From assembly GCA_963666285.1 (NCBI GenBank), contig OY762711.1: DNA of 64,000 bases; one strand, written 5' to 3'. The translations under genes were made by a program, and so were the position numbers. Source of the DNA: Sedimentisphaerales bacterium (lineage in GTDB: Bacteria > Planctomycetota > Phycisphaerae > Sedimentisphaerales > SM23-30). Below, piece by piece: positions 34,870 to 59,207 of this stretch (within the stretch, counting starts at the first letter, position 1; each line of letters begins with the position of its first letter). A model generated the notes under the pieces. It did not search any database and was not told the DNA's origin. It worked only from the letters and a program-made list of their open reading frames with translations.

Positions 34870-34905
34870 TATATAATCCTCCAGGAATTTATTATTAAGG
34901 TTAAA

Positions 34906-36963
34906 TTATTCCGGCCTGTTGCCGTCTTCCAGCCATTCAGCTGCAAATGATGAAAAGTCAAATAAATCTACTACACAATCAGGAGTACCTTCCGGACCGG
35001 TTTTATCAAGTACCGGTGGATACAGACATATTTTACTTCCAGTGTAGTCAAAGTATAATCCGGCTACACCTTCATCATCGAAAGAGTAATTATAAACCTT
35101 GAGTTCATCGAGAGAGCCGTTCAAGAATCCACTTGGCACTCCGCGACCATTTGACGCACCTACCAGCACATCAAAATTCCATTCGCCAAACTCCTGAAAT
35201 GCGGCGTTTGATGTAGCTGAGCCCTGATTTTGACCATCAACATAAATAGCCATACGAGCACCTTCAGCAGAAGCTTCCCAGGTGAGGACAACAAAATGCC
35301 ACTGATCATCATTAACAGTACCAATATTTCTTTCAATTGAGGTCTGATCAATATCACGAAGATAACCGCGTACCTTACCGTCTTTGATATGACATTGGAA
35401 ACCGGTCGTATAATGCTGCGGCTGGTTATTGTATATACCTAAAATATTACTGTCGGTATCAGCAGAAGTCTTAAGCCAACATGAAATTGTGCCATGCTCA
35501 AGTGAAGAATTATTCTTCGGATAAGCTTCTGTTCCAATATTGATATAATATGAACCGTCAAGACTCAAAGCACCGTCAGAATCGCCATTCCAGCCTTCTG
35601 AGTAAGCATCTGTAGCTGTATAGATGTTCGGGTCTACATATTGGTATGCCGCCCCGTGGTTACTGCCTACACCATCCTGCAGGTCGTTATCAAAGGCATA
35701 ATACTGAACAACTCTTTCAACAGAAACAGCGGCAGAGTCAGAGTCAACAGTAGCTCCATTAGAAGCAATCTTAACCTGGCAATAGTAAATACCTTCATCT
35801 GACACCTGTGCAGAGGATATTGACAAAGCTGCACTGGTCTGACCGGAAAGTGCTTCACCATTTTTATACCACTGATATTCCAGGCCTGCACTTGATGTAG
35901 TAAATGGATTGAAACCTTCCACTTCAAGTTCTATTGCAGTATCCGGTTTTACCAGTAGATCGGTAACAGGTTGTACAGAAACTTCAGGAACAGAAAGTAA
36001 TGTATAGAAATTCCAGACATCACCGGTAACAACCGAGCCATCATTTAGTTTCTCATCAACTCGCCATGCATATTGTGCATCACGTACAAGGGTGCCGCCA
36101 GGAATAACATGAGAGCCACTACCAGAACCATCAACTGCATATTCAACTGCAGTAATATCAGCTAAATTAGGGTCTTCACCATTTAATGCTGCTGTTGACA
36201 CATATACCATATGATGAGTAATATCAGAATTTGGAAGTGATATATTATCAGGATCGATACCAGTATTCCAGGTCAATGTCAAAGCTTCAGTTACGGTAAC
36301 ATCTTCCTGACCTGATACAGGTAACGGCTGCCAGGCTTTAGGCTCAAATACTATATCTAATTGCGGTGCACCGGAAGAAGCTTCACGAGAATATAATGTA
36401 AAATTCTGATCGTTACTATTTCGGCTCAACAATATTGTGATCTCATCATTTGTATCCGCATTTATGAAATCAACCAGAGAATCTGTACTAACAGTAAAGA
36501 TATCTCCATCAGCAGGAGCTGAGCTCCAGGAGAAACTACCTAAATTGGTAAGATTCTCGCCTTCAGCAAAGTCGGGCAGATATAGAGCGTTCCCGGCATT
36601 AATCTCAGTCTCGGTCCAGTCTGTACCAAGTAAATCACCGGGCTGACCGTCAATAACACCCCAAACAGTTACAGTGCCACTTCCAGCTGTATTACTGCCA
36701 GTACAGAATGCAAAGCTTAAAACAGCCTCATTGGCAGGAGGCTGGCCGGTCAGATCAAAATGAAACCAGCCATCTCGATTATACGATGAAGTAGCTCCGG
36801 TAGTCGACCTCTTCAGAACAATAGAACTTTCGGCTCCATGATTACTACTGTCACCCACTTTAACAAAAGTGTCAGCATCGGAAACAATTACTCCAGCCTG
36901 CACTACACATGAAAGCAATTGGACCATCAGGAAAGCCAGAAAGACCTTAACATAATTTGACAT
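34906..36963 (-). CDS. Secreted multidomain protein: DNRLRE-type module, Ig, LamG-like and dockerin-like domains
   Basis: Signal peptide; SDADTFV; YAWRVDE; YQWYKNG...GIYYC; GSLDELKVYNY; DCVVDLFDF...EWL. Confidence 0.75.
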   Translation of the reverse strand: MSNYVKVFLAFLMVQLLSCVVQAGVIVSDADTFVKVGDSSNHGAESSIVLKRSTTGATSSYNRDGWFHFDLTGQPPANEAVLSFAFCTGSNTAGSGTVTVWGVIDGQPGDLLGTDWTETEINAGNALYLPDFAEGENLTNLGSFSWSSAPADGDIFTVSTDSLVDFINADTNDEITILLSRNSNDQNFTLYSREASSGAPQLDIVFEPKAWQPLPVSGQEDVTVTEALTLTWNTGIDPDNISLPNSDITHHMVYVSTAALNGEDPNLADITAVEYAVDGSGSGSHVIPGGTLVRDAQYAWRVDEKLNDGSVVTGDVWNFYTLLSVPEVSVQPVTDLLVKPDTAIELEVEGFNPFTTSSAGLEYQWYKNGEALSGQTSAALSISSAQVSDEGIYYCQVKIASNGATVDSDSAAVSVERVVQYYAFDNDLQDGVGSNHGAAYQYVDPNIYTATDAYSEGWNGDSDGALSLDGSYYINIGTEAYPKNNSSLEHGTISCWLKTSADTDSNILGIYNNQPQHYTTGFQCHIKDGKVRGYLRDIDQTSIERNIGTVNDDQWHFVVLTWEASAEGARMAIYVDGQNQGSATSNAAFQEFGEWNFDVLVGASNGRGVPSGFLNGSLDELKVYNYSFDDEGVAGLYFDYTGSKICLYPPVLDKTGPEGTPDCVVDLFDFSSFAAEWLEDGNRPE

Positions 36964-37031
36964 AGTCTTATTCCTCCAAAAAAAAATATTATTAAAAGCA
37001 ACTAAACAATTAAATTCAAAATATACGTATA

Positions 37032-38804
37032 CTATTGTCCGGGATTACCACTAAGGTATATTTCCTGGATTTCTTTATCTGAAAGTACCCTATCAAACAG
37101 TGCCAGTTCATCTATTTTACCATTAAAGAAATATCCATCTTTATCTGAACCGTCTGCCCCCAGAAGCAAATATGAATTAACCCTTTTCGGAGTAAAATCA
37201 TATTCTTTACTGCCAATCAACTCGCCATTATAATAAAACCTTACTGTTTTATTATCGTGTGTTACAGTTATATATTTCCAATCAGTGCCATAACCGTCAG
37301 GCATCGTTTGCGATACTTCCTTACTAATACTCCCGCTAATATTTATCCTGAAAAACCTTATCAGGTTCTTTTCAACAATCAGTCTGTAATTACAATGCCC
37401 GCCCGGTATTCTATTGGAAATAACTGTTCCTCTGCTGCCAGAGCCAATCCAGGCAGATATTGTTATAGGCCCGGTAATTTGTATTTCCGGACAATTCAGA
37501 TTTGCCAAAGACATATTTCTCAGGCTGAACGACTCGTTACCCGGCACTACAGCATATTGTCTTTTATCACTATTAAACTGCATGGAAAACTTGTTGGCCC
37601 ATCTTCCTTTTGACCAAACAGGATTATTTTCCGACGAACTCTCACTTCCCAGTAAAGCATTTAATCTTGAACCAGTTGCCATTGAAAAGTTTTTCAAGTG
37701 CATCGTATCGTCTTGCGGCTTTTCAAATGTATAATATGCTACCAGATTGGGATCCCTTTTTATTTCATAACTATTGGCAAGCCAGCGGTGGTATGATGAC
37801 CCTGCTTTGCTTAATGCCCGTGCTTCAAATTCACCCGTTCTAACAAATGCCAAATCATTATATTCAAGTTTTGACACTTCTCTATTATTATCAACGCGCC
37901 ATGCATGGCCCTCGGTAATTAAAAGAGAATCATTAAAAGTATTTTGATCGACATTATCTGAGGCATAAGTTGCCATACTAACCTTACCGTCAAATACATA
38001 AGTATCTAATTGATCATTTTGAACCGACACACCAAACTCTGTGCCCAGATCTACTATTTTTACTCCCTTGGCATAAACAGAAAAACCAATTGCCTTAGGT
38101 GGAACTGAAGCAGATATCTTTCCTTGCTCAAGGTAAACTTCCCTTTCAGAACGAAATTCCAGTGCGGCAGGTGCTTCCAATACCAATTCGGCACCATCGT
38201 CCATTAAGATCGAAGCGAAACCTTCCTCTAGAGATAACTTACCTGTATATATATCACCACCAGGCGAAATCGAATTGTCATCCCAGCGGGCATCTAACTG
38301 CTGTACCAAAGTCGCCACTGAAACTTTATATTTGGGCGGGAAAACATTCGCATAAATGATAAAAACTATCATTAAAACCGCTGCGATGGAAACAATCACA
38401 CTATAAAGACGATAAAATTTATTCGACTTGATTGTATTTACTTCATTTTTAGCTGACACATCTTCTTTATACGCGACATTCTCTGTACTTGGATAGCTTA
38501 TTGCCACCTCGGGAGCCCGCATCTCATTTTCCAGGAGAGAATGCATTATTTCCATATCGAACATTGAAGAATCTGAATTGCTCTTTTTAACATCGTGTGA
38601 ATTAAATAATATTTTATTTATTGAATTATCCGAGCTCAAAAGCAAATCATGTATTTCTCTTCGGAACAACATGGAATCAATGAACTTCCTGGCATTTTGC
38701 TGATCCTGCTTTATCCATTCAGATAATTCCTGAAACTGCTGCTCATTCATAGAATCAGGATCAAGCATATACCTGCTTAATAATTGTTCGATTCTATCTG
38801 TCAT
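37032..38804 (-). CDS. FecR-like anti-sigma factor with C-terminal LamG domain
   Basis: Single TM (VIVSIAAVLMIVFIIY); FecR motif VDLGTEFGV...VFDGKV; GKIDELALFDRVLS. Overlaps the sigma gene stop by 4 bp. Confidence 0.85.
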   Translation of the reverse strand: MTDRIEQLLSRYMLDPDSMNEQQFQELSEWIKQDQQNARKFIDSMLFRREIHDLLLSSDNSINKILFNSHDVKKSNSDSSMFDMEIMHSLLENEMRAPEVAISYPSTENVAYKEDVSAKNEVNTIKSNKFYRLYSVIVSIAAVLMIVFIIYANVFPPKYKVSVATLVQQLDARWDDNSISPGGDIYTGKLSLEEGFASILMDDGAELVLEAPAALEFRSEREVYLEQGKISASVPPKAIGFSVYAKGVKIVDLGTEFGVSVQNDQLDTYVFDGKVSMATYASDNVDQNTFNDSLLITEGHAWRVDNNREVSKLEYNDLAFVRTGEFEARALSKAGSSYHRWLANSYEIKRDPNLVAYYTFEKPQDDTMHLKNFSMATGSRLNALLGSESSSENNPVWSKGRWANKFSMQFNSDKRQYAVVPGNESFSLRNMSLANLNCPEIQITGPITISAWIGSGSRGTVISNRIPGGHCNYRLIVEKNLIRFFRINISGSISKEVSQTMPDGYGTDWKYITVTHDNKTVRFYYNGELIGSKEYDFTPKRVNSYLLLGADGSDKDGYFFNGKIDELALFDRVLSDKEIQEIYLSGNPGQ

Positions 38805-39334
38805 TGTTGAGCCTCGCTTAGTTTCTTTTCAACACAATTTTTTAACGCTAATCTAATGCGATGAAGTGAAACGAACACATTATTTCTGGTCATGCTTAAT
38901 TGCTGGGCAATCCGATTAGGACTAAACTCATAGTAATAATGCATTTCAACAATTTTTTTCCATTTTGTCTTGAGTACCTTCAAGCAGCTTTTCAAGTGAT
39001 TGCTCACTTTCTTTTTATGCTCCATAATACTCTGCAAATCATCCTCATATACTTCGGAGATAATACTTATAGCATCACTATCCAGCATCAGCCTGTTTTT
39101 ACGCTTTTCGGCATAGTACATTAGTATTAAATTTCGTGCAATTCCTATAGCCCAGGCTGTAAAAGACCCACTCCTGTCGAATGTATCAAATTTATCCACT
39201 GTAATTACGGCGACATTCTGCATAATATCATCCGCATCCTGAAAATTTGAGACCTGTGCATTAATATAATTTGCAATCTGCGGCTGAGATTGTGCCCAGA
39301 ATATTGCTAACTCTTTGTTTTCATCTTTATTCAT
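38801..39334 (-). CDS. ECF sigma-70 factor (Planctomycete/Verrucomicrobia type)
   Basis: DADDIMQNV, FTAWAIGIARN, region 4 IAQQLSMTRNNVFVSLHRIRLALKNCVE. Confidence 0.9.
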   Translation of the reverse strand: MNKDENKELAIFWAQSQPQIANYINAQVSNFQDADDIMQNVAVITVDKFDTFDRSGSFTAWAIGIARNLILMYYAEKRKNRLMLDSDAISIISEVYEDDLQSIMEHKKKVSNHLKSCLKVLKTKWKKIVEMHYYYEFSPNRIAQQLSMTRNNVFVSLHRIRLALKNCVEKKLSEAQQ

Positions 39335-39912: not shown

Positions 39913-40782
39913 ATGATTGACAAATACATAGAAGAATACTACAGATATGTACACTTTTCAGGCACTGAATGCCTTAAAGGTAACACCCTTGAAGAAGTTT
40001 CGTTTAACAGCCAGGATAAAGAAGAGTGTTTTGCCGTTATAAGCCCACATGATGATGATGGAGCTTTAGGAGCCGGCCTGCTTATGCAGCTTGCACTAGA
40101 AGAAGGCGTAAAAGTCCATGTAGTTATAGTAACCGACGGAGGCATGGGATATTGCTCTAATGAAGAAAAGGGAGTTATATCCGGCATCCGAAAGGAAGAA
40201 ACACATAAATGCTATAAAACCCTGGGGATACCTGAAGAAAATATACACTGGCTGGGTTTCCCTGACTGCAATTTATTCCAACACCAGGGACGAAGAAAAT
40301 GCCAGACAGGTGAGATGGGAGAATATGCGGGTTATACCGGACTGCAAAATTCATTTACCCAGATACTGAGAAAAGTACGGCCGACACAATGTTTTATTCC
40401 AACGCGAAATGACTTACACCCAGACCATAAATTGATCTACGATGAACTGCTGATCAGTATTTTTCATGCAACTGGTTCTATCTGGCCGGAACTGGGTTTG
40501 TCACTGGAACAGACTCCATCTGTACATGAAATTGCTGTCTATTGCGATTTCCCAGAACCGCCAACCTTTCAAATCAATGCCGATGAAAGCCTTCTTGAAA
40601 GAAAGCTTTATGCGATTAACGCCTTTCAGTCACAAAAGCAGATTGCCAGCTTGATCGAAGGAGTTAGAAACGGCGGGCCGCAAGAATACCTACGCACTAT
40701 TGATTTTCGCTTTTATAATCCCAAAGTATACTCAAAAATGTTTCAGAAGATTTTGAAAGAATATGAAGCTTTAGCGAAATAG
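39913..40782 (+). CDS. PIG-L/LmbE family de-N-acetylase
   Basis: SPHDDD, VTDG, R..E, HPDH and AFQSQ motifs. Confidence 0.85.
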   Translation: MIDKYIEEYYRYVHFSGTECLKGNTLEEVSFNSQDKEECFAVISPHDDDGALGAGLLMQLALEEGVKVHVVIVTDGGMGYCSNEEKGVISGIRKEETHKCYKTLGIPEENIHWLGFPDCNLFQHQGRRKCQTGEMGEYAGYTGLQNSFTQILRKVRPTQCFIPTRNDLHPDHKLIYDELLISIFHATGSIWPELGLSLEQTPSVHEIAVYCDFPEPPTFQINADESLLERKLYAINAFQSQKQIASLIEGVRNGGPQEYLRTIDFRFYNPKVYSKMFQKILKEYEALAK

Positions 40783-40791
40783 GCGAGATTA

Positions 40792-41544
40792 ATGGCTTAC
40801 AACATTTTATATCTTGGTGATACAGCATTGGATAATGCCGGATCTTACCTGGCTGGAATACTCTCATATACTGAAGTACAATTTGAATACATTCCATCTG
40901 ATGTGCCGTTTAGAGATGCCCAGCTGGGAAATAATATTCATGCAGTGGTTATTAGTGATTATCCTGCAGTAAATTTTTCCAAAAGTCAGCTTGATCTGTT
41001 AACTGATAAAATCAGTGACGGTATGGGAATACTTATGATCGGCGGATGGGATTCATTTACCGGAATTAACGGAGGCTATCAGAATACTGTTTTACAGGAA
41101 ATTTTACCGGTAAAAATGCAGGATTCAGATGACAGGGTAAACAGCGCCCAACCATGTGTAATAAGAAAAAGAGAGCGTCATGATATTGTTAATTCTCTTC
41201 CATTTATAGCGTGTCCGCCCTGCGTTGCCGGCTATAACCGTCTGGAAGCAAAATCTGGCTCTCAAACAATTTTGTCTATTGATAAATATAAAATAAATGA
41301 CAATGGATCAGATTTGTCATTTATGCGGCAAGAGTCAGATCCAATGCTGGTTATTGGCAAATATGGCAAAGGACGAATGGCATGTTATGCCGGTGACGTA
41401 GCTCCACACTGGGCAGGCGGATTAGTAGACTGGGGTGAAAGAAGAATAAAATTAAAAGCACCCGGAGCAGAATTAGTAGAAGTCGGCAACTGGTATGTAA
41501 ATTTTTTCAGCAATATGATTCGCTGGACTTGTCAAGAAAGTTAG
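40792..41544 (+). CDS. Class I glutamine amidotransferase-like protein (DUF1355-like)
   Basis: VVISDYP, GILMIGGWDSF, ILPV, GKGR..Y..DVAPHW. Confidence 0.7.
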   Translation: MAYNILYLGDTALDNAGSYLAGILSYTEVQFEYIPSDVPFRDAQLGNNIHAVVISDYPAVNFSKSQLDLLTDKISDGMGILMIGGWDSFTGINGGYQNTVLQEILPVKMQDSDDRVNSAQPCVIRKRERHDIVNSLPFIACPPCVAGYNRLEAKSGSQTILSIDKYKINDNGSDLSFMRQESDPMLVIGKYGKGRMACYAGDVAPHWAGGLVDWGERRIKLKAPGAELVEVGNWYVNFFSNMIRWTCQES

Positions 41545-41548
41545 GAAT

Positions 41549-42748
41549 ATGAGCATAATAAAAGGAAATGCTATAATCGGTCAATCTGGAGGCCCAACAT
41601 CAGTAATAAATGCCTCCCTGGCAGGAGTTGTTGAGGCTGCAAATAAGTATGCCGGTATAGTCAAGATGTACGGCATGCGATATGGTATTGAAGGATTTAT
41701 GTCTGAAAAGATAATAGATTTTGCAACTGTAAGTCCTGAGACAATAGATGGACTCAAAACAACCCCTTCAAGTGCCCTAGGTTCATGCCGTCATAAACTT
41801 AAAGACGATGATCTGCCGGTAATATTGGAACTTCTCAAGAAATATAATATTCGATATATATTTCTTATCGGCGGCAATGATACGATGGACACCATTCACC
41901 GCCTGGAAGAATATGCCAGAAAAGAGCAATACGACATGATCGGCGTGGGAATTCCTAAAACAGTAGATAACGATCTTTTTGGGACCGACCATACCCCTGG
42001 ATTTGCCAGTGCTGCACGCTATATGGCTCTGTCAGTAATGCAAACCGGAATACTTGCACGTGACATGCAAAAAGTTGATCAATTCGTGGTTTATCAGTGT
42101 ATTGGTCGTGAGGCCGGATGGCTGGTAGGAGCAACTGCTGCCGGTAAAAAAAGGCCGGAAGATGCACCTCATATTATGTGTCTGCCTGAAAGGCATTTTG
42201 AAAAAGATAAGTTCCTGGCTGATGTGCAAAGATGCTATAAAGACTATAGATATGTATCTGTCGTTTGCGGTGAAGGCATTGTTTACGCAGACGGAACACC
42301 TGTCTCAGCATCAAAAACTGCAGACAGATTTGGAAATGTAGAATTTGGTGCAATGGGTGGTACAAGTGCGGCTATGGCATTGCATCAGATGATATCAGAA
42401 GAGTTTGGTTTTCGCGGTGAGTTTCAGATTACTGAATCCCTGCCTATGTGTGCTGCTGACAGAGCTGTTCGGCTTGATATTGATGAAGCATACATGTGTG
42501 GAAAAAAGGCAGTTCAGCTTGCTGCAGACGGCATAAGCGGTGTAATGGTAACATTGGAAAGAAGCAGCGGCAGTGTTTACAGCTGCTCAACAGGTACAGC
42601 AGCTCTCAGGGATGTTGCCGTGCGGGCTAAACCCCTGCCGGATGAATATATCAATCATGAAGGCAACTTTGTGACTGATGCCTTTTTTGATTATCTAAAT
42701 CCTTTAGTTGGTGAAATGCCGGATTACGTATCATTGCCAAAAGTTTGA
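41549..42748 (+). CDS. pfp: Phosphofructokinase family A, probably PPi-dependent
   Basis: GQSGGPT, GSCR, GGNDT (Asp at the PPi-determining position), PKTVDNDL, TPGFASAA. The usual MGR motif is replaced by CIGR. Confidence 0.8.
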   Translation: MSIIKGNAIIGQSGGPTSVINASLAGVVEAANKYAGIVKMYGMRYGIEGFMSEKIIDFATVSPETIDGLKTTPSSALGSCRHKLKDDDLPVILELLKKYNIRYIFLIGGNDTMDTIHRLEEYARKEQYDMIGVGIPKTVDNDLFGTDHTPGFASAARYMALSVMQTGILARDMQKVDQFVVYQCIGREAGWLVGATAAGKKRPEDAPHIMCLPERHFEKDKFLADVQRCYKDYRYVSVVCGEGIVYADGTPVSASKTADRFGNVEFGAMGGTSAAMALHQMISEEFGFRGEFQITESLPMCAADRAVRLDIDEAYMCGKKAVQLAADGISGVMVTLERSSGSVYSCSTGTAALRDVAVRAKPLPDEYINHEGNFVTDAFFDYLNPLVGEMPDYVSLPKV

Positions 42749-42850
42749 TATAAATAAACATTTTGTATTTAGAACTCAATAACGGTTAGTATTAATTATA
42801 ATTGCAAAATACAGCTCAAATACACAACACAAATTGAAAAGGACCTTAAC

Positions 42851-43864
42851 ATGAATAAAAGTGATAAATACATGAATTATTCCCTGGTTCAGGAAATGAT
42901 GGACACTCCCGACGTATTAAGAAATTTCAGTTTGGGAAACTGCCAGGAATTAATCGAAGAAATCAAGGCTGCGGGTAAACTTTTTTTAACAGGTGAAGGT
43001 TCCAGTAGAATATTCCCGGCAAAAAATATTATCTATTCTGCTTTATGCGAAGGGATAGGGTTAGATATTAAAACAGATGGCGGTCGGCAGGCAGCAGAAT
43101 ACAATCTTTCAGATTATGTGATATTTGGCGCATCTAACAGCGGTTCTACCAAAGAAGTAATTGCATTGCTCAATAACTTAAAAGGCAGTCATCAGAACCT
43201 TTACGGACTTACAGCTCGTAAAAACACAAAACTTGCTGAAATGACAAATAAAACATACACATTAAGTTGTGGCTGGGAACAAGCGGTAGCGGCAACCAAA
43301 AGTGTTGCCGAGCAAGCTCTGTTTTACCAGGAACTGCTGGCCCAAGTAACGGGAAAAACTCTTAAGGACCAATTTGGCGTGTTGGCTGATGCCGTTGCTG
43401 ATGCTCTAACCGTAGAGATTTCACCTGAAATAACAAAAACCATATCCGAGGCCGGTACAATTTACTTCGCAGGCCGTAACGATGGTGTCGCGGAAGAGTT
43501 AACCCTCAAAACAAATGAAATTACACGAAAGAAAAGTGACTTCCTGGAAGGAACCTATGCCGTACACGGAATTGAAGAAGTAATGGACTCCAAGGATGTA
43601 GTTATACTGATCAACCCATTTGAAGCAGAACTGGAAAAAATCAAGGAAACTCTCGTAGATGGTGTAGGTTTGACAGTAATTGCAGTAAGCAGCAAAGAGA
43701 CAATATTCCCAACTATTATTGTTAAAGACCCGGGAATGCTGAAAAATTATGTTTACCTAGCGGCAGGATGGAATATTCTGGTGGAAGTAGGAATCTATCT
43801 AAATATAAATCTTGACAAAGCAGAACGAGCTCGCAAAGTAGGTAATGAATTTGTAGAACTATAA
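42851..43864 (+). CDS. Double-SIS-domain sugar-phosphate isomerase/deaminase (GlmS-C/GlmD/AgaS-like)
   Basis: TGEGSS, SNSGSTKE, EQAVAATKS, LTLKTNE and HG motifs. No glutaminase domain. Confidence 0.8.
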   Translation: MNKSDKYMNYSLVQEMMDTPDVLRNFSLGNCQELIEEIKAAGKLFLTGEGSSRIFPAKNIIYSALCEGIGLDIKTDGGRQAAEYNLSDYVIFGASNSGSTKEVIALLNNLKGSHQNLYGLTARKNTKLAEMTNKTYTLSCGWEQAVAATKSVAEQALFYQELLAQVTGKTLKDQFGVLADAVADALTVEISPEITKTISEAGTIYFAGRNDGVAEELTLKTNEITRKKSDFLEGTYAVHGIEEVMDSKDVVILINPFEAELEKIKETLVDGVGLTVIAVSSKETIFPTIIVKDPGMLKNYVYLAAGWNILVEVGIYLNINLDKAERARKVGNEFVEL

Positions 43865-44069: not shown

Positions 44070-45869
44070 TCATAGAGAAAGAATGTATTCGGCCAGGTCT
44101 TTGATTTCCTGGTCAGTTAGATTTTTCGTATTTCCGTGCTTGTTATTTTTATTGTCATTAGTAATTACATCTTCTATTGACTCTGCACGACCATCATACA
44201 TGTAAGGAGCGGTTCGCCAGCACTCGATAAGAATCGGAGTTGCAAATTCACGATCTCGATCATTATCTGAACCAAGGCCTAAAACGTGTTTTGAACGGTC
44301 ACCATAATACGGCGGTACATGACATTTTGCGCAATTTGCCTTACCGAAAAATATTTCTTTACCTCGTAAAGCCGAACCTGTTAAATTACCGTTTATATCC
44401 AGATAAGGGCTTGGTATCGGTTCAAGTGATTTCAGATACTCATTTACTGCTGCTTCATGCTGAGGTGTTGCCTGGTGAAACTGTATATGTGAGAAGCCTT
44501 TAGAGACGGCAATTTCCGCCGAAGCTCTGGCACCGGTAATCATTACCGGTGAGGTTCTATGGGTATAGAGCAGACTCCTTGACTGTTTGGGATTGCCGAT
44601 ACCATCATTTAACAGGTCCCAGTTTGTGCCGTCAGATCTGCTGTCAGGGTGACAGCTGGCACAACTCTGCCAATCCTGATAACAGAATGTTGCATCATTA
44701 AATGCCATCTCTCCTTGCCTGACAAGACCTGGTGCGATGTTTTCCTGCATAGGCAATGCAACTGCGGCCCCTGGTCCATCATCCCAGATTTCGAGCATGT
44801 TAACACAATCGGAAAAATACATCGGAATGTAAATATAATCATTTTTTACTGCAATAGAACGTGCTCCCTGCCCTTCAAGCTTAATCCTGGTTTTTGCTCC
44901 ATAGAGAAACGACAGGTCATTAACAATTTCTTTAGGATCGTCTGCATTACTAATCCGTTTAAACATCTCTTTGATATCAATACAGATAATCTCATGGGTA
45001 CCGGAAGCATTAACACATAACCATTTGTCATCATTTGTTACAGCAATTCCCCAGGGATTGGCAGCCCCCCGCATTATATCATCAAGGAGTACTGAGTTAA
45101 TATACTTCTGCTCAGCCATATCAAAAATAGATACCGCACTGGTATTAATCCAACCGCGGTCCAGATGAGTGGTCGGTACTGTAAAACGCCCAATGGTATG
45201 GGTAACAAACAAATATTTACCATTGTTACTTATGGCAGAACCTCGTATAGCAAATGAGCCTGAAGGCATATCGAGCGTGGCTACAGGTTCAAGGTCGCTA
45301 CTCCTGTAAATATTCAAAGAGGTAAAGACTTTTTCGAGATTAGCAGGCATTAGAGGAAGATGGTTTACTACCCAAAGATAATTGCCATCTTTTGAAAGAT
45401 TCATGGTTACAGGTTCTCGAATAGCCTTGGTTGAAGCTGCAATTTTCCATGATTCGATATCCAGGGAATACACATCCGGCTGATCTTTTCTGGAAAATCG
45501 ATTACAGAAAAAAACGGTTTTACCATCAGGACTTAATATGGGGTTCATCGGTGTGTGGCCGACAGACAAGCTTCGGAGTAATTCACCCGTTTTAGCGTCA
45601 ACCTCATGAATCTTACCGTCAAATCCGCCACATGCGGCATAAATCCTGTCATTATCAGCAGAAAGTACTATTTGCCTGACACCTTTAACATTAAAACGAG
45701 CGGCTATTGTTTCTTTGGCAACATCAAGAACCTGCACACTGTCATCGGTTTCACAGGCAAGGTATAATAATGTCCCATCTCTGGATATTGCAATATCAGA
45801 AGGTGAAAGATATCTTTGCTCTCCAATTAACGCAGAACAAAGACACAATAAAATAATAACAAATCGCAT
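44070..45869 (-). CDS. YVTN-type beta-propeller fused to a di-heme cytochrome c (CcP/MauG-like) domain
   Basis: Signal peptide; SPDG-type repeats; CASCH and CAKCH heme motifs; APYMYDGRA; LTDQEIKDLAEYILSL. Confidence 0.82.
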   Translation of the reverse strand: MRFVIILLCLCSALIGEQRYLSPSDIAISRDGTLLYLACETDDSVQVLDVAKETIAARFNVKGVRQIVLSADNDRIYAACGGFDGKIHEVDAKTGELLRSLSVGHTPMNPILSPDGKTVFFCNRFSRKDQPDVYSLDIESWKIAASTKAIREPVTMNLSKDGNYLWVVNHLPLMPANLEKVFTSLNIYRSSDLEPVATLDMPSGSFAIRGSAISNNGKYLFVTHTIGRFTVPTTHLDRGWINTSAVSIFDMAEQKYINSVLLDDIMRGAANPWGIAVTNDDKWLCVNASGTHEIICIDIKEMFKRISNADDPKEIVNDLSFLYGAKTRIKLEGQGARSIAVKNDYIYIPMYFSDCVNMLEIWDDGPGAAVALPMQENIAPGLVRQGEMAFNDATFCYQDWQSCASCHPDSRSDGTNWDLLNDGIGNPKQSRSLLYTHRTSPVMITGARASAEIAVSKGFSHIQFHQATPQHEAAVNEYLKSLEPIPSPYLDINGNLTGSALRGKEIFFGKANCAKCHVPPYYGDRSKHVLGLGSDNDRDREFATPILIECWRTAPYMYDGRAESIEDVITNDNKNNKHGNTKNLTDQEIKDLAEYILSL

Positions 45870-48800
45870 TACAAGTCCTCAACAACTATACGGAAACCAA
45901 CATTGAAAACCGGCTGCCATGGCGAATAATTCAAACGATAACTTGATGTTGCCCGGTACGGCCTATCTAAAAATGACCCGCCCCTGACAACCTTTTCTGT
46001 TTTACTGTCCATAGAGTTACTGCGATCATTATTATAAGGATAGCTTACATAATCACTGCGAGTCCATTCGGCAACATTCCCATGCATGTCATATACACCC
46101 CAGGTATTAGGCTGATACTGCCTGGTTCCTGAGACAAGAAACTGTTTATCATCATATTTAGAAACCCTTGGTAAGAAATCAAAGATCGGATTTCCAACCA
46201 GACTGTTATTAAAAGTTGGGTTTACACCAATAACAGCAAATTTTTCTATTGATTTATCTGCCAGATTAGCATAGTTGCTGAAATCAGACTCTATCGATCC
46301 ATAAGCCATCGCTTTTTCACTTCCAGCCCTGCAAGCCCATTCCCATTGAGCTTCTGTAGGCAAAGCGACCCTGGCTCCGGCCTTTTGCGATATCCATTTA
46401 CAGAAGTCATTTGCCTGGATCCAACTCACTCGTACTACCGGCTGCTCATCATAGCCGGCATAGTAGCCAAGACGAACATGGTCTTTCCATTGCTGGTCAA
46501 ATACACTGGCATCGTGTTTAGGATTAAAAGTGAAAAATAATTTATTTGTTATCTCGCATTCAGATATCCAGAAGCCTTTTTCAATCTTAACCTGATGGCG
46601 AGGCTGTTCCCGGGGTGTTTCCCGGTCACTTCCCATAATAAATTCACCGGCAGGTATGCGTACCATCACAATCTTAAGTCCGTCGCCAATATCCATTTCC
46701 TTTTTCATCTGCGACCCTGCATCCTGCTGCATTTGTCTGGCCATTTCCGCATCAAAAGGCCAGTTTTGAGCGGACACCCGGACTGGTTCGCTCTTTTCCA
46801 AACCTTTGGTTTCATTTACCGAAACCGGATATGGTGATGACGGGGTATATTCCCAGTCAGAATCAACAAGTGCATATTTTAATCGTAAATCTGAAGCTAT
46901 CTCAGAAATACTTTCAGTATAATCTTTTCGCCCTTTGTTACTACTATATGCATCTATCCAGCTTCCATAATAAGGCACATTCAGATCTACCCAGGTGTAA
47001 AGTCTTTGCCATGATTCTTCATCCAGGTTTACACCATAATGTCCTTTTTTAAGTAACTGAATTCCTTCAGAAGTAGAAACGTGATACTCATAAGGGACCG
47101 CCATTAAACCATTACTTTCCGGCCCCGGACGACGGAAATATTTATGGAAAGCAAAATATGAGTTGCTGAAATTCCTGCTGAAAGAACCTGGATTTTCAAC
47201 TTTTGTATCTTTAAAGTCAGGTTTCCCGGCATCTGTGCCATCATGACAACGAATACAATATGCATTCAGGACTGGCTGAATTTCTGCATTAAATGAGAAA
47301 CCTTCGACACGTTCACGATATGGTATAATCTGTTGCGGTTCTTTTAGGGAAGCAATAGTTTTGCTGGTAACAGGAGGTTCACTCGGTGATTCATGACAGC
47401 CTATACAAGAAAGCTTTTCACCCGGCATTCCTACCAGCCAGCTTCGGAAAAGCTGTATGGCACGGCCTTCTTTATCCAATGGCTGTAAAGAAATAGTAGT
47501 GTTTGCAGGTACATTAAACATAACCGAACCGTCTTGTTCTACTTTTACCGTACCCAGCATACGTTTAACATCCCATCCGCTTTCAACGCCAATATGATGG
47601 TGATTCCCCAAACGGAAATACCCGTACGCATATGTAAAGACACGAATACGATCAACTGTTCCTTCAGGAACACCTTTTAAGCCAGGACCTCTGTAAATAT
47701 TCTGGATATAGCAGGTCGCTTCTTTGTTATGCAGGTTTACGCGATCAGGAATAATTGGTGGACGCTGACGTTTCCTTACCGGATATGGCTCAACCATATA
47801 TTTATAACCGGAAGCTTCATTTGTTCGGATCGGTACAAAATTATCAAATTTATCTACCAGGTATAGTCCCCAATCGCTATCTGCTGTCAATTGGGCAACC
47901 GTCAAATAATACTCGGCACTAACAGGATAAGGCTGGAAGAATTGTGGATAAATACCATCAACCAGCCTGTCAAGATCAAGAGCCATCTCATCAGGATAAT
48001 AATCACGAAGTCTTGGGTAGCATTTATTAAAGAAATCATTGTTTAATTCGTGATAATCTTTTCCGGCATTAGCTGAATCCGGCATATATTTATCTATCAG
48101 ATCAGTCACAACGTTTTGAAGGTCGGGAAATTTTTCTAATAGCTCTTTCTTTACTGTCGGATATAGCTGATCAACCGTTACATGGGTAACGTCCTTACCA
48201 TAACCTGGAATATACTGAACTACACCATCTGCATGGGCATAACCTTTATTGGTATCAAAAATAGTAAGCTTTCCGGTTCCGGCAACTCCATGATGACCGG
48301 AAACAACTGCCGAGAACTTACCCGGCTCACCAGGCAACGGGCGGGCATTAAACATTGAGTTTGGCCATAAACTCTGTGACCCGTAAATTGAACGCTGGTT
48401 GGTGCCATCCGGATTCATTGTCATCATTATTCTTGAGTAATAATGCATAATGTCGGTATACTCCCAACGAAGATACATTATCTTTCCGTCTCCGGTAACG
48501 GTAGGATACCAGTCTGCATCCTGCTCAAAAGTAAGCTGTCGAGTATTTTGGCCGTCAGGATCCATTAAATATAGATTTGGAACTAATTTGTCACCACCAA
48601 TACAAGGCACTCCTATCATCGGTGCAGTAGAACTGAAAACAATTTTTTCACTCGGCAGATAAACTCCGCCATAGTTATGGACATTATCTCCTTCTATGGT
48701 GGAAACCCGGCGTAAATTAGAACCGTCAATGCCAACCTCCATAACCTGATACTTATTACTTGAATCAGGTTGAGAGAACAGAAGTTTTTCAGTATCGTAA

Positions 48801-49834
48801 TGCAGGTCAAGTTCACAAACCAGAGCTTTGTCAGCAGGCGTGTAAACGTCTGTAACCTGGCCTGTATTCAGATTTAACCTGGCTATCTTATTATTATACC
48901 CTTTGTGGTTAATTACATAGGTGCCTAACCAATTTGCTTTTCTGACGACAGTATCTGTCTGCACCATCAATATCTCGTCGAAATCCAGATAAGGATTTTC
49001 CTTCACCAGAGCAGTGTACTTCAGCTTATCATATTCTTCAATAGCTTTAGCGGCTTCAGGATCATTGTTTTTCAGTTTTGTTATTATTTCAGGCATATCA
49101 GCTTTAATTTTTTCAGCTTGTTTAAGAAAAAGACGCCCGTTTTTATATTCCCTGGGTTTATTTTTAAGGATATGCTTAATAGAGTGTATCAGTGAATCAG
49201 GATTAGATAGTTCAAGTAATGCTTTCAATTCACTATTACTTGCCATTTTAGCTATTTGAATTCTTTGTTCCGATATGGGCAGCTTCTTATCACCTGGAGA
49301 ACATACGGTACCAAGCTCCGAAATCTCACCCTGAGGATTTTTCACCGCCGCCCTGAGATAATTATCACCGATAAAATTGAAATACAGCAAATTTATCTGA
49401 TGTTTTCCCGGCTTTAATGAAACTGTTTTTGATTTTGCCGTTTTAGCACGCTTACCATCATTATTAATGATTTCCTGGTTATCCAGAAAAAGAACACTCC
49501 CATCATCTGAAGTTATTGAAAATTCGTAATTCCCTTCATGTGAAACATCCATAATGCCAGAAAACTCAATATTCCAGAAACTGCCATATTTTTTATCTCC
49601 CATTGAAGTAATTTCTGACACATTGCCATGTTCAACCATTTTACCTTTGCCAATAAATACAAAGGTATCGATTTGACCATCATATGCAAAGTAGGAGATT
49701 TCGGCATTAACAGCTGAACTGAGAATACAAATACATAAGAACCAAAAATACATTTTTTTCAACATACTAATTTCCATTATGTAAACATAAATACATGTAA
49801 TTTCAGACAAATTATCGTTAAGAACCATATTCAT
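45869..49834 (-). CDS. PA14 + TolB-like propeller + hydrazine synthase alpha-like middle domain + c-type hemes + FGE/SUMF1-fold domain
   Basis: SDDGS PA14; VEQDGSVMFNVPA...RSW..PGE.LSCIGCHE; second heme CIRCH; LPTEAQWEWACRAG, DMHGNVAEW, RGGSF. Likely start MLKKMYF at 49765. Confidence 0.8.
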   Translation of the reverse strand: MNMVLNDNLSEITCIYVYIMEISMLKKMYFWFLCICILSSAVNAEISYFAYDGQIDTFVFIGKGKMVEHGNVSEITSMGDKKYGSFWNIEFSGIMDVSHEGNYEFSITSDDGSVLFLDNQEIINNDGKRAKTAKSKTVSLKPGKHQINLLYFNFIGDNYLRAAVKNPQGEISELGTVCSPGDKKLPISEQRIQIAKMASNSELKALLELSNPDSLIHSIKHILKNKPREYKNGRLFLKQAEKIKADMPEIITKLKNNDPEAAKAIEEYDKLKYTALVKENPYLDFDEILMVQTDTVVRKANWLGTYVINHKGYNNKIARLNLNTGQVTDVYTPADKALVCELDLHYDTEKLLFSQPDSSNKYQVMEVGIDGSNLRRVSTIEGDNVHNYGGVYLPSEKIVFSSTAPMIGVPCIGGDKLVPNLYLMDPDGQNTRQLTFEQDADWYPTVTGDGKIMYLRWEYTDIMHYYSRIMMTMNPDGTNQRSIYGSQSLWPNSMFNARPLPGEPGKFSAVVSGHHGVAGTGKLTIFDTNKGYAHADGVVQYIPGYGKDVTHVTVDQLYPTVKKELLEKFPDLQNVVTDLIDKYMPDSANAGKDYHELNNDFFNKCYPRLRDYYPDEMALDLDRLVDGIYPQFFQPYPVSAEYYLTVAQLTADSDWGLYLVDKFDNFVPIRTNEASGYKYMVEPYPVRKRQRPPIIPDRVNLHNKEATCYIQNIYRGPGLKGVPEGTVDRIRVFTYAYGYFRLGNHHHIGVESGWDVKRMLGTVKVEQDGSVMFNVPANTTISLQPLDKEGRAIQLFRSWLVGMPGEKLSCIGCHESPSEPPVTSKTIASLKEPQQIIPYRERVEGFSFNAEIQPVLNAYCIRCHDGTDAGKPDFKDTKVENPGSFSRNFSNSYFAFHKYFRRPGPESNGLMAVPYEYHVSTSEGIQLLKKGHYGVNLDEESWQRLYTWVDLNVPYYGSWIDAYSSNKGRKDYTESISEIASDLRLKYALVDSDWEYTPSSPYPVSVNETKGLEKSEPVRVSAQNWPFDAEMARQMQQDAGSQMKKEMDIGDGLKIVMVRIPAGEFIMGSDRETPREQPRHQVKIEKGFWISECEITNKLFFTFNPKHDASVFDQQWKDHVRLGYYAGYDEQPVVRVSWIQANDFCKWISQKAGARVALPTEAQWEWACRAGSEKAMAYGSIESDFSNYANLADKSIEKFAVIGVNPTFNNSLVGNPIFDFLPRVSKYDDKQFLVSGTRQYQPNTWGVYDMHGNVAEWTRSDYVSYPYNNDRSNSMDSKTEKVVRGGSFLDRPYRATSSYRLNYSPWQPVFNVGFRIVVEDL

Positions 49835-49865
49835 GTATTATATGACAGGCTCTTAATATTATTAT

Positions 49866-50450
49866 TTAGAATACAATACCCGGAGTTGAGAAAACCAACC
49901 CGTCATTATCGTGGAAAGTGCCATATTCCGTAACGATAGCCCCTTTTGGTCCACCCATCATCCAGTGCATTGAACCTGCCTCTTTAAGCTGACCAACTTC
50001 ACCAGGTTTCAGATCCGTTTTAGTTTTAGCAATCCAATATTGTTTTTCCACCTGGGGAATATCATCTTCAGCACCCGGAGTTGGAATACCCTCACTATAA
50101 AGAGACACAGAACCGTATCGACACTGCCAGGCTTCCATCTTGGCACATACACTATCTGTCTGATTATGCCCGTGCTCAGGAATACGCTGTCCCGGCAAAA
50201 GATATATTTCATGCCCGAGATAGCCATCTGCACTGTTAACCCAGAAAATACCAGCCATACCAACTTCTGTGAATCGACCAAGACCGAAATCAATTGCCCA
50301 GAACTCTTCGCCCTTAAGACGATCAACTATGGGATACCCATGGTATTTCATTAGTTCGTGATAAGCTTGTATTGCTTTTTCCTGGTTGAAAACACCATCG
50401 GCATTATAGTATTCTTTATTTTCGTAGTGAAACAATTTGCTATTTGACAT
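49866..50450 (-). CDS. D-lyxose/D-mannose isomerase-family cupin
   Basis: DFGLG, LLPGQRIPEHGH, KMEAW, LKPGE, H-W, IVTEY motifs. Confidence 0.75.
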   Translation of the reverse strand: MSNSKLFHYENKEYYNADGVFNQEKAIQAYHELMKYHGYPIVDRLKGEEFWAIDFGLGRFTEVGMAGIFWVNSADGYLGHEIYLLPGQRIPEHGHNQTDSVCAKMEAWQCRYGSVSLYSEGIPTPGAEDDIPQVEKQYWIAKTKTDLKPGEVGQLKEAGSMHWMMGGPKGAIVTEYGTFHDNDGLVFSTPGIVF

Positions 50451-50492
50451 AAGATATCCTTCTTAAACTTACTTACTTTCCTGCAAAAAATA

Positions 50493-51299
50493 TTATATTA
50501 AACGTTGGGAAATCATATCTGCATACTCTTTAATCCGCTTCCCAAAAGATTCAAATTCACTCTCAGAAAGTCTTTCTCCCGGACCTGTTGTCCATATCGC
50601 TGCAATTGGATATTTTCGCCGGTCAAAAACAGGAGCGGCAATACAATGAACACCATCAAGCTGTTCGCCCCGATCTATTGCATAACCCGTAATACGAATC
50701 TCTTCGATTGCTTTTCGATATTCTTCATTATTTCTTATTGTACGACTGCTGTAGACCTTATATTCGATCCTGTCCAACAAACCGTCACGTTCTATTTCAG
50801 GAAGGTATGCAATTATCGCTTTGGCCGGAGCTGAAGCATGAAGTGGCAACCGAGCACCTATATCAAGCATGAACTTAAAAGGATAAACACCGGCAGCCTG
50901 CTCCATAACGACAAATTCATTTTGGGCAATTGTACCTATAAGAACGGTTTCTTTGATTGAATCCCGCAATTGACACATCAAATCAAATGACTTTTCGATA
51001 AGGCTATGCTCAGTAACAGCCAAAATACCAATCAACAGCAATTTCCTTGATATAAAGAAATTCTTTGAAACTTCATCTCGAAACAAATAGCCGGCATCTA
51101 ATAAAGTTTCTGTAATGCGAAAAATACTGTTTTTGGGATATTTCAACTCTGCAACAATCTCTGAAAGAGTCATCCCATCATGATTTTCCGCTAATAGTTC
51201 AATTACCTGCAGCCCCCTCTTTAAGCCGGGAACAAGATAATCGCTATCTCCTGCTTTTTTCCTGTTATCAGTATTCATAATAATGAACCATTTGTTCAA
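50493..51299 (-). CDS. IclR-family transcriptional regulator
   Basis: VPGLKRGLQVIELL HTH; LPLHASAPAK; GYAIDRGE...CIAAPVFD. Likely start ATG 51278. Confidence 0.92.
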   Translation of the reverse strand: MNKWFIIMNTDNRKKAGDSDYLVPGLKRGLQVIELLAENHDGMTLSEIVAELKYPKNSIFRITETLLDAGYLFRDEVSKNFFISRKLLLIGILAVTEHSLIEKSFDLMCQLRDSIKETVLIGTIAQNEFVVMEQAAGVYPFKFMLDIGARLPLHASAPAKAIIAYLPEIERDGLLDRIEYKVYSSRTIRNNEEYRKAIEEIRITGYAIDRGEQLDGVHCIAAPVFDRRKYPIAAIWTTGPGERLSESEFESFGKRIKEYADMISQRLI

Positions 51300-58278: not shown

Positions 58279-59061
58279 TTATTTATAAATTGGAGAACCA
58301 TCATCTCTGGTTCGTTCGCCAGTACATTTAAAGGTTTTATGCCACTTAAGTGCCCAAAGATTCTTAAGTTCTACAGGACGCTGAGAACCATCAACAAAAC
58401 CAACATTAATTTTACCGTCATGCCGATCTATTAGATATCTGCTCATTCCGCCGGCTGATGTTGTATCACTACCCAAAAGGTTAAATCCTGCCGGACAGGA
58501 ATCAGTATCTTCCACTTTTGAGTCAAGCCATTTTGAGTCAGCAAAAACCGGAGTTAAACTGGTCATCTTTACCTGGCTATAATCTTTATATTTCTTTAAT
58601 GGATCAAGGCTGTTTAAATTAGAATAGAACCAACCATTGATGGAATAACAACCTTCTTCTGCTATATCCATGCCGTCCCAATACCAAACCCAGCTTTTCT
58701 TTGCAGTTCCATATTGGTAACTCTTAATATCTTCCATTTTTTCCAACCTGGCCTTGGTCCTGTGGCACATACGGGCTTCATCAATTTCATCCATATATTT
58801 TGTGAGTTTATTCACCCATAATCCAGATCCATAACTATACTCCGGCATTTTTCCTTCATTAGCTTCCGTATACATAATGGAAGCAAGCTGCATAGTTTTA
58901 AGATTAGTAAGACACATTACATCTTTAGCACTGTTTCTGGCTTTGCTCAATGCCGGCATAAGTATAGAAACAAGTAATGCAATAATAGATATAACGACCA
59001 GCAGCTCTATTAGAGTAAAAGCTTTAGCGATTTGATTACGTTTGGAATTCATTTTCGGCAC
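58279..59061 (-). CDS. Prepilin-type N-terminal cleavage/methylation protein with H-X9-DG motif (DUF1559-like)
   Basis: [36 protein letters not shown]-terminal [13 protein letters not shown]. Confidence 0.88.
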
Positions 59062-59207
59062 CTCGTGAAAATTGCATATATATTTATGTAGATATACTTA
59101 CTCATAATGACAAGTTATCATAATGAGTTTTAACAAAAAATAATGCACACCATTTCCAGTTAAACAAATATTCAATAATATCAAAAAACAGGTTAACTGC
59201 GTTTGCA

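Follow-up and report, generated by a model that had tools for sequence, protein, structure and literature searches.

A hydrazine synthase-like pair of predicted exported heme proteins beside an IclR regulator and a sugar isomerase-like cupin in a Sedimentisphaerales bacterium

Introduction

What do proteins built like hydrazine synthase (HZS), the enzyme of anaerobic ammonium oxidation (anammox), do in bacteria with a quite different way of life? The question is raised by a locus in a 64,000-nucleotide stretch of DNA (hereafter the window) from contig OY762711.1 of assembly GCA_963666285.1, a Sedimentisphaerales bacterium; members of this order are described as strictly fermentative glycan degraders (PMC11266412; for context, PMC9387917). 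Two adjacent genes of the window, here called A and B, encode an HzsA-like di-heme protein and a fused HzsB/HzsC-like protein, and they are preceded by genes for an IclR-family regulator and a cupin resembling D-lyxose isomerase. Sequence comparison and modelled folds place the pair as a distant, non-anammox relative of HZS.

The pair itself is not novel. Co-localised genes for alpha homologues and fused beta-gamma homologues have been divided into four clades, key residues of HZS have been found missing in these homologues, and HZS has been proposed to derive from periplasmic heme proteins (Hägglund, 2025; PMC12758564); alpha proteins annotated as SUMF1 or formylglycine-generating enzyme (FGE) are among the representatives in Table S5 of that paper. 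An hzsA gene upstream of a fused hzsBC gene has also been described in Phycisphaerae, together with the suggestion of a wider family with other substrates (Suarez, 2023; PMC10732223). The novelty implied by the original prediction for this locus, which was made from the sequence and read A and B as an exported heme redox complex acting on carbohydrate and possibly informative on HZS origins, was therefore overstated: the pair is a member of a recently described family of unassigned chemistry.

In the text of PMC12758564 available to us there is no proposal for the function of the homologues, and its main text makes no mention of FGE, formylglycine, sulfatase or carbohydrate; its supplement contains no chorismatase or RidA terms. 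No functional study of the Hzs-like family was found in the literature searched, which leaves out most subscription journals. The same literature yielded no report of a ratio of one beta-gamma gene to many alpha genes, or of links to IclR, to a cupin-DhaKL-LsrF module or to chorismatase-like genes, some of which may be shown in the figures or supplement of PMC12758564.

Gene and domain structure of the locus

The four genes lie on one strand in the order iclR, cupin, A, B:

50493..51299, minus strand: iclR, IclR-family regulator (PF01614 and PF09339); likely start ATG at 51278
49866..50450, minus strand: cupin, D-lyxose/D-mannose isomerase-like (phmmer match to 2Y0O, E 9e-23)
45869..49834, minus strand: gene A, HzsA-like di-heme protein of 1321 aa, predicted to be exported; likely start MLKK at 49765
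44070..45869, minus strand: gene B, fused HzsB/HzsC-like protein of 599 aa, predicted to be exported

The following features were delimited within the two proteins:

49319..49606, minus strand: PA14 domain of A, aa 77-172 (E 1e-14)
47831..48976, minus strand: six-bladed beta-propeller of A, approximately aa 287-668, from DSSP of the model
47390..47662, minus strand: HZS_alpha middle domain of A (PF18582), aa 725-815 (E 1.4e-29)
47393-47407, minus strand: heme alphaI motif CIGCH of A, residue 810, at the end of the HZS_alpha domain
47243..47257, minus strand: second heme motif CIRCH of A (heme alphaII equivalent), residue 860
45884..46666, minus strand: FGE-fold domain of A (FGE-sulfatase), aa 1057-1317 (E 3e-42)
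45141..45188, minus strand: highly conserved loop in the propeller of B, aa 228-243, within the predicted A-B interface
44649..44663, minus strand: heme gammaI motif CASCH of B, residue 403, preceded by C396 and W400
44319..44333, minus strand: heme gammaII motif CAKCH of B, residue 513

The layout that the original prediction had read from the sequence is borne out in every element: the regulator and the lyxose isomerase-like cupin (which matches 2Y0O and 7NZO) ahead of the pair; PA14, propeller, Hzs-alpha-like domain, two CxxCH motifs and FGE fold in A; and a propeller with a di-heme CcP-like domain (PF03150; CxxCH at 403 and 513) in B. The 1-bp overlap is also as claimed, the stop codon of A and the start codon of B sharing one base at 45869 (TAATG). 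The gaps further upstream are 42 bp between iclR and cupin and 31 or 100 bp between cupin and A, and the likely start of A at 49765 is where a signal-peptide-like stretch begins, as judged by eye. Spacing of this kind suggests that the four genes are co-transcribed; promoter and terminator scans of the locus gave chance-level results. The hydrophobic N-termini of A and B (by eye) and their c-type heme motifs point to export of both proteins, and a CcsA-type gene is present in the window's genome. The nearest named homologues share 76-80% identity and are labelled Phycisphaerae. Sulfatases and glycoside hydrolases are abundant in the window.

Relationship of A and B to hydrazine synthase

The likeness to HZS extends over whole chains. 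A scores 102.9 bits with the PF18582 profile, whose cut-off is 26.6. For residues 200-1321 of A, the AlphaFold model (pLDDT 90.5) has HZS alpha 5C2V_A as its top match (Foldseek E 1.2e-24), with Z 31.4, an rmsd of 3.0 and 560 aligned residues spanning residues 55-808 of that chain; a search of the ESM Atlas returned unnamed HZS_alpha clusters only. For B, the best NCBIfam match is the hydrazine synthase beta-gamma fusion (E 2e-33), and the best PDB sequence matches are HZS gamma (1e-21) and HZS beta (6e-17). B consists of a seven-bladed propeller and a di-heme CcP-like domain (PF03150, CcP/MauG fold); the propeller is well modelled and the model's top match is HZS beta 5C2V_B (TM 0.84), whereas the heme domain is of low confidence, so that the gamma residues and the gamma match were judged by sequence alignment.

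These profile and structural comparisons had been named in advance as checks, and both came out in favour of homology, with the proviso, also foreseen, that the pair is not of the anammox kind. The residues and mechanism of HZS are taken here from PMC12607021, and four true HZS loci were included in the alignments. At the position of Tyr591 (His+4, proximal ligand of heme alphaI), which is present in the true HzsA loci examined, A has Ser and 0 of 81 homologues have Tyr. The positions of gamma Cys165 (third thioether) and the distal Asp168 are gapped in 123 of 123 homologues in the sequence alignment, where the stretch is divergent. The NCBIfam profiles NF052339 and NF052342 gave 51.5 bits against a cut-off of 800 and 115.5 against 1250. 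Because Tyr591 and gamma Cys165/Asp168 are missing and both scores are far under cut-off, the pair, judged by its sequence, is not hydrazine synthase. The zinc ligand Cys303 of HZS aligns to Gln487 of A; this is a weak criterion, as one true HzsA (L123) has Tyr there and, according to PMC12758564, Cys303 is absent in Scalinduaceae. Gene order also differs, with alpha followed by beta-gamma here and beta, gamma, alpha in the anammox loci L122-L125. PF13447 (HAO/HDH octaheme) had no match in the window's genome, and likewise none in any control.

Some heme ligands appear to be retained. H932 of A (74 of 81 homologues, one column off His772) is the probable distal ligand of the heme alphaII equivalent, and H578 of B (113 of 123, aligned with an HZS His) that of heme gammaII, which would make both hemes bis-His as in HZS, on the evidence of the alignment. 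Alongside these, the family has conserved residues of its own: C411 (79 of 81), R456, W457, Y459, H515 and E815 in alpha, and C396 (119 of 123) and W400 (121 of 123) in B. The propeller residues C411, R456, W457, Y459 and H515 of A have no conserved counterparts in true HzsA in the alignments. C411, Y459 and H514/H515 lie in the loops between strands 2 and 3 of successive blades (strand order of the model) on one propeller face, where they may bind a ligand or a metal. At position 796, Met is found in 72 of 81 homologues but Phe in the subgroup of A.

Linkage and predicted complex

The neighbourhood survey comprised 120 loci centred on B homologues, 80 of them metagenomic (the best 80 of 572) and 40 genomic (40 of 87 places, chosen by score and size of contig); a search of genome contigs with B alone had given one locus, and the survey was therefore built on metagenome loci. 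Where B had at least 3 kb of sequence on both sides, 40 of 58 loci had an alpha gene next to B or fused with it, 44 had one anywhere in the locus and 14 had none. Alpha, beta and gamma are fused in a single chain in 4 of the 120 loci. A is directly upstream of B in all eight close-orthologue loci, and an alpha match was found in 52 of the 53 B-positive genomes among 401 genomes of the class.

The fusions (L051, L069, L071 and L150) are approximately 1500 aa long where complete and are followed by ABC/efflux-type genes, and one 2231-aa protein (P0095) contains two alpha cores and an FGE domain. Genes of the URO-D family (methyltransferase-like) occur beside or near B in L099, L103, L113 and L116.

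The complex anticipated by the original prediction was modelled from A 286-822 and B 21-483 in three runs with three controls. The score was 0.67 (runs 0.00, 0.67 and 0.76) and the best of the three controls 0.00, against a mark that 116 of 157 solved complexes and 2 of 215 mismatched pairs reach; contact agreement was at least 0% (one run 0.00) and partner pLDDT at least 86. This score supports the anticipated complex, but the pass may come from likeness to the solved HZS structure. The predicted interface is formed by the highly conserved B loops 228-243 and 317-323 and by the tail of A after its first heme, which is also the cut end of the modelled chain. Loop 228-243 is probably the counterpart of the tunnel loop of HZS beta. 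Taken together, linkage, fusion and modelling make it very probable that A and B form a stable complex.

Placement within the family

The family comprises at least 4990 A-like and at least 2752 B-like proteins, and PF18582 occurs in 74 of the 401 genomes of the class, as well as in a Bacteroides thetaiotaomicron control. With WP_146526410.1, a Table S5 representative, A shares 44% identity over 1098 columns; this protein groups with A and its orthologues (FastTree support 0.997) and is the sole published representative present in the tree under its accession. By elimination from the text and Table S5, WP_146526410.1, and hence A, most likely belongs to clade IV. Clade-I-like rows stand next to HZS at a support of only 0.29, and neither an order of events nor a donor is therefore claimed.

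FG-GAP genes lie beside the clade-I-like loci L126, L127 and L129. The group L126-L129 (genomes G132, G125, G234 and G346) has clade-I-like alphas with FG-GAP neighbours; L128 and L129 have ten-heme beta-gamma partners that keep the inter-heme Trp, and L126 has a chorismatase-like gene.

Alpha paralogues and binding modules

Alpha genes are often present in many copies. Among the 401 genomes, at least 12 alpha matches were found in 21 of the 53 B-positive genomes, and at least five in 18 of the 31 genomes with one B match. A PA14, F5/8, NPCBM or LamG domain was found in 12 of the 36 long N-terminal alpha extensions scanned. In the window's genome itself there is a second alpha and beta-gamma pair, which has no FGE domain, as well as two alpha genes that stand alone:

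G000:C1:2446444-2450862: second pair
G000:C1:5604714-5607614: lone alpha
G000:C1:5759942-5762818: lone alpha

One of these lone alphas has an F5/8 domain and three CxxCH motifs, and adjoins Fur and catalase genes.

The FGE domain is carried by 33 of 97 alpha rows, which form one clade (33 rows, support 1.0); in this sequence tree the joining of FGE and alpha is one ancient fusion. The FGE-fold domain of A is closest to PvdO (Z 27.4), followed by TvpA (26.9) and FGE (about 23).

The IclR regulator, the cupin and the DhaK-DhaL-LsrF module

The window's IclR belongs to a subfamily that sits by Hzs-like genes in 8 of 10 loci: six are directly beside alpha or B, one is one gene away and one is probably beside a divergent alpha. 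The remaining two comprise one divergent to DhaK-DhaL-LsrF-Pta and one with none of these neighbours.

The cupin matches the D-lyxose isomerases 2Y0O (E 9e-23) and 7NZO (E 3e-22), and gave no Pfam match at E 0.01. Its homologues stand beside DhaK, DhaL or LsrF in 23 of 30 loci (hand tally), and in L061, L074, L086 and L239 this cupin-DhaKL-LsrF module is found together with an FGE-type pair. Locus L239 (G561:C59:251-12671), which was selected because its coordinates adjoined B, has on one strand B, cupin, A (PA14-alpha-FGE), a chorismatase-like gene, DhaK, DhaL, LsrF and Pta. LsrF yields acetyl-CoA and dihydroxyacetone phosphate (DHAP), according to PMC7828210.

Many cupins of this module (L061, L074, L239-L243) have twin-arginine-like leaders (by eye), which suggests an exported sugar isomerase. 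Such a leader is missing in L247/L248 and in the window's cupin, which has no signal peptide.

Proposed function of the probable complex

The fold homology, the loss of HZS residues, the linkage, the fusions and the alpha expansion are established by the observations above. Beyond them, the pair is best read as a modular exported four-heme oxidoreductase, built on an HZS chassis and serving other chemistry on a sugar-derived substrate. That the substrate of the complex is sugar-derived we regard as evenly balanced, and the reading as a whole falls a little short of that balance.

In such an enzyme, B would be the shared module, with electrons entering via the bis-His gammaII heme and a small co-substrate, most likely O2 or peroxide and possibly NO, acted on at heme gammaI. 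The product, or an oxidising equivalent, would travel past the conserved loop of beta and reach heme alphaI in an alpha subunit that can be exchanged, a passage that can be likened to the hydroxylamine transfer proposed for HZS. A would be the specificity subunit, binding ligand through its PA14 and non-catalytic FGE-fold domains and oxidising the sugar-derived substrate. In relatives, the product would then pass to an isomerase (the cupin), a kinase (DhaKL) and a thiolase (LsrF) together with Pta, giving DHAP and acetyl-CoA under dedicated IclR control.

The window's genome encodes possible redox partners: a CydA-like protein with two CxxCH motifs (G000:C1:622509-624035), a pair that looks by eye like NrfH/NrfA (C1:5548848-5550840) and three proteins with 7-9 hemes (C1:480489, 1533204 and 1560770).

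Several observations weigh against this assignment. The neighbourhood survey, which supports strong linkage to alpha, found IclR in 1 and the cupin in 3 of the 120 B-centred loci, and the close-orthologue loci L043 (3.9 kb upstream), L046 (6 kb), L048 (1.2 kb) and L027 (0.3 kb) have neither; this speaks against a fixed operon of the four genes. The ten IclR loci come from 4 of 64 genomes, the 64 having been chosen for carrying Hzs-like genes, and 0 of 10 wider regions around the top cupin matches contain an alpha or B gene. DhaK and LsrF had no match in the window's genome, which is 97% complete, so that the downstream route was not found there. No carbohydrate-binding match was obtained for 24 of the 36 alpha extensions, and the counts of B rest on three scored candidates per genome. 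Carbohydrate genes and binding modules are common across these genomes, and their proximity is for that reason weak evidence. The proposed link to carbohydrate draws real, if indirect, support from the binding modules, the IclR subfamily and the cupin of the DhaK-DhaL-LsrF module. Finally, a sugar substrate leaves the chorismatase-like neighbour of B, described below, unexplained.

Alternative functions

Among the alternatives, the one that survives best, though unlikely, is periplasmic detoxification of peroxide or NO, whereby an anaerobe would be protected by B as a CcP-like reductase and by A as its electron carrier or anchor. In its favour are the CcP/MauG fold of the gamma domain of B (PF03150), the heme-peroxidase gene that comes after B in L047, the rubrerythrin found close to B in L098 and L141, one alpha paralogue next to Fur and catalase genes in the window's genome, and the binding of NO by heme gammaI of reduced HZS (PMC12607021). 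Such stress-gene neighbours are sporadic, however, and detoxification does not call for at least 10 alpha paralogues with variable binding modules. The position of the inter-heme Trp of CcP and MauG, moreover, is I444 in B and mostly I, S, V or A in the family (54, 27, 20 and 13 of 123, respectively), with Trp kept in two clade-I-like rows. According to PMC12758564, this position corresponds to HZS gamma His144 and is Trp in clades I-III.

Distinctly unlikely is that the complex is concerned with making, using or modifying an aromatic compound derived from chorismate (a cofactor, redox mediator or secondary metabolite), with the FGE fold employed as in the tailoring proteins PvdO, ToxD or CalU17; PvdO is the closest fold of the FGE domain. 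The commonest other neighbour of B is a YjgF-fold protein of about 370 aa whose best PDB matches are of the Hyg5/FkbO type. Its gene occurs in 28 of the 120 B loci (directly downstream of B in 25), beside the distant clade-I-like alpha of L126, and in 50 of 53 B-positive as against 58 of 348 B-negative genomes, related genomes not being independent. DAHP synthase is found in six B loci, four of which include ResB: in L082, L089, L104 and L111, DAHP synthase, beta-gamma, the chorismatase-like gene and ResB stand in a row, with CcsA in L082 and L089. This row ties the aromatic-pathway pair to cytochrome c maturation genes. On the other hand, chorismatase-like proteins score far below the TIGR04444 cut-off of 325 (57.7 and 143.8 bits) and have no signal peptide by eye, and the copy in the window's genome is distant in sequence and unlinked to the pair, about 300 kb away. 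The same genes also accompany unrelated clusters, directly beside DUF1501 in L175, L179, L183, L184 and L189 and DUF1549/DUF1553 in L175, L179 and L189, and the family may serve several periplasmic systems of Planctomycetota. The FGE domain and the chorismatase-like protein showed no match when compared, and the window's genome had none for the futalosine-pathway family PF02621.

An improbable third possibility is that B is a MauG-like maturase which builds a protein-derived cofactor or crosslink in the alphas (for example at C411 or the HH motif) in a transient complex. That one B serves many alpha genes, the MauG fold (TIGR03791, E 2e-10) and the conserved C411 of A and C396/W400 of B would all suit it. 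B, however, scores 40.5 bits against the MauG cut-off of 443.85 (and 36.9 against 362.85 for MbnH), lacks the inter-heme Trp and has a heme 2 that appears bis-His, while a stable complex is the better fit to the four natural fusions and the HZS-like fold.

That A is a formylglycine-generating, sulfatase-maturing enzyme fed by hemes is very improbable and already largely refuted. Databases name its homologues so, the Pfam FGE-sulfatase match is strong (E 3e-42), and sulfatases flank the locus and occur in 16 of 120 B loci. In FGE the catalytic cysteine pair follows the GGS motif; as the original prediction had noted, A lacks it, with no cysteine beyond residue 1168 and hence none in RGGSFLDRPYR. 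The RGGS-x-x-DRP motif is likewise without the cysteine pair in 92 homologues, and most alpha paralogues have no FGE domain at all.

A true hydrazine synthase of an unrecognised anammox lineage, as raised for Phycisphaerae metagenome-assembled genomes by Suarez (2023), is scarcely credible, since the whole-chain match to HZS alpha and beta, the four hemes and the predicted complex are set against scores far below cut-off, no Tyr at His+4 in 81 homologues, gapped gamma Cys165/Asp168 in all 123, a reversed gene order and a window full of glycoside hydrolases and sulfatases.

Implications

The modular oxidoreductase reading has a bolder extension, which we consider doubtful: the pair may belong to an extensive and modular set of periplasmic enzymes in anaerobic glycan degraders, of which HZS would be one specialised alpha. 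Equally doubtful are its particulars, in which one beta-gamma module would make a reactive co-substrate and channel it to at least 12 exchangeable alphas, each with a sugar-derived substrate of its own to oxidise, the FGE-type alpha would feed the cupin-DhaKL-LsrF-Pta route, and the chorismatase-like enzyme would supply an aromatic cofactor or mediator. If this were true, the two-site tunnel mechanism of HZS would predate anammox.

The origin of HZS is an open question, and knowledge of the reaction would reveal both the ancestral chemistry of HZS and the part played by heme enzymes in glycan degraders that live mostly by fermentation. Thousands of annotations as 'formylglycine-generating enzyme', together with false anammox calls, would then be corrected. 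The function is made testable by the dedicated IclR with its screenable effector, by the cupin-kinase-thiolase module, which would limit the product to a small keto-sugar, by the chorismatase-like companion and by the ratio of one beta-gamma to many alphas.

Other genes of the window

A convergent operon on the plus strand (39913-43864) encodes a PIG-L deacetylase, a GATase1-like protein, a pyrophosphate-type phosphofructokinase and a SIS-domain protein, and is probably concerned with amino-sugar catabolism. A SIS gene 56% identical to that of the window lies near B in L147 only; the operon recurs near B this once and is not counted as a part of the system. A conserved sulfatase link was also rejected (16 of 120 loci, one query). 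Two further regions (32629-39334 and 58279-63020) contain ECF-sigma-like (by eye) and FecR genes, LamG/Ig secreted proteins, a prepilin-like gene (by eye) and an M60 peptidase, and an open reading frame at 1051-2343 resembles a transposase by eye.

Comparison with known systems

The pair shares with HZS of Kuenenia stuttgartiensis (5C2V) the alpha fold of propeller, middle domain and second heme domain, the beta fold, four c-type hemes, probable bis-His alphaII and gammaII hemes and a conserved beta loop at the predicted interface. It differs in having no Tyr591, Cys303, gamma Cys165 or Asp168, in its additional PA14 and FGE-fold domains, in its reversed gene order, in a conserved Cys/His/Arg/Tyr set of its own and in an alpha that is often multi-copy.

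With clade IV of Hägglund (2025), the locus has in common an alpha-like gene beside a fused two-heme beta-gamma gene in Planctomycetota that are not anammox bacteria. A additionally has a PA14 domain, an inserted helical stretch in its propeller and Phe at the mostly-Met position 796. Clades I-III have FG-GAP or ABC-transporter neighbours, of which none was seen among the flanking genes scanned here, and a Trp at the inter-heme position that B does not have. The two-heme CcP-like domain is shared with the bacterial di-heme cytochrome c peroxidase/MauG superfamily, from which B is set apart by its fusion to a seven-bladed propeller, the missing inter-heme Trp and a probable distal His on heme 2. 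Lastly, the C-terminal domain of A has the fold of FGE/SUMF1, PvdO, TvpA, ToxD and PorK, but it is without catalytic cysteines and attached to a heme protein.

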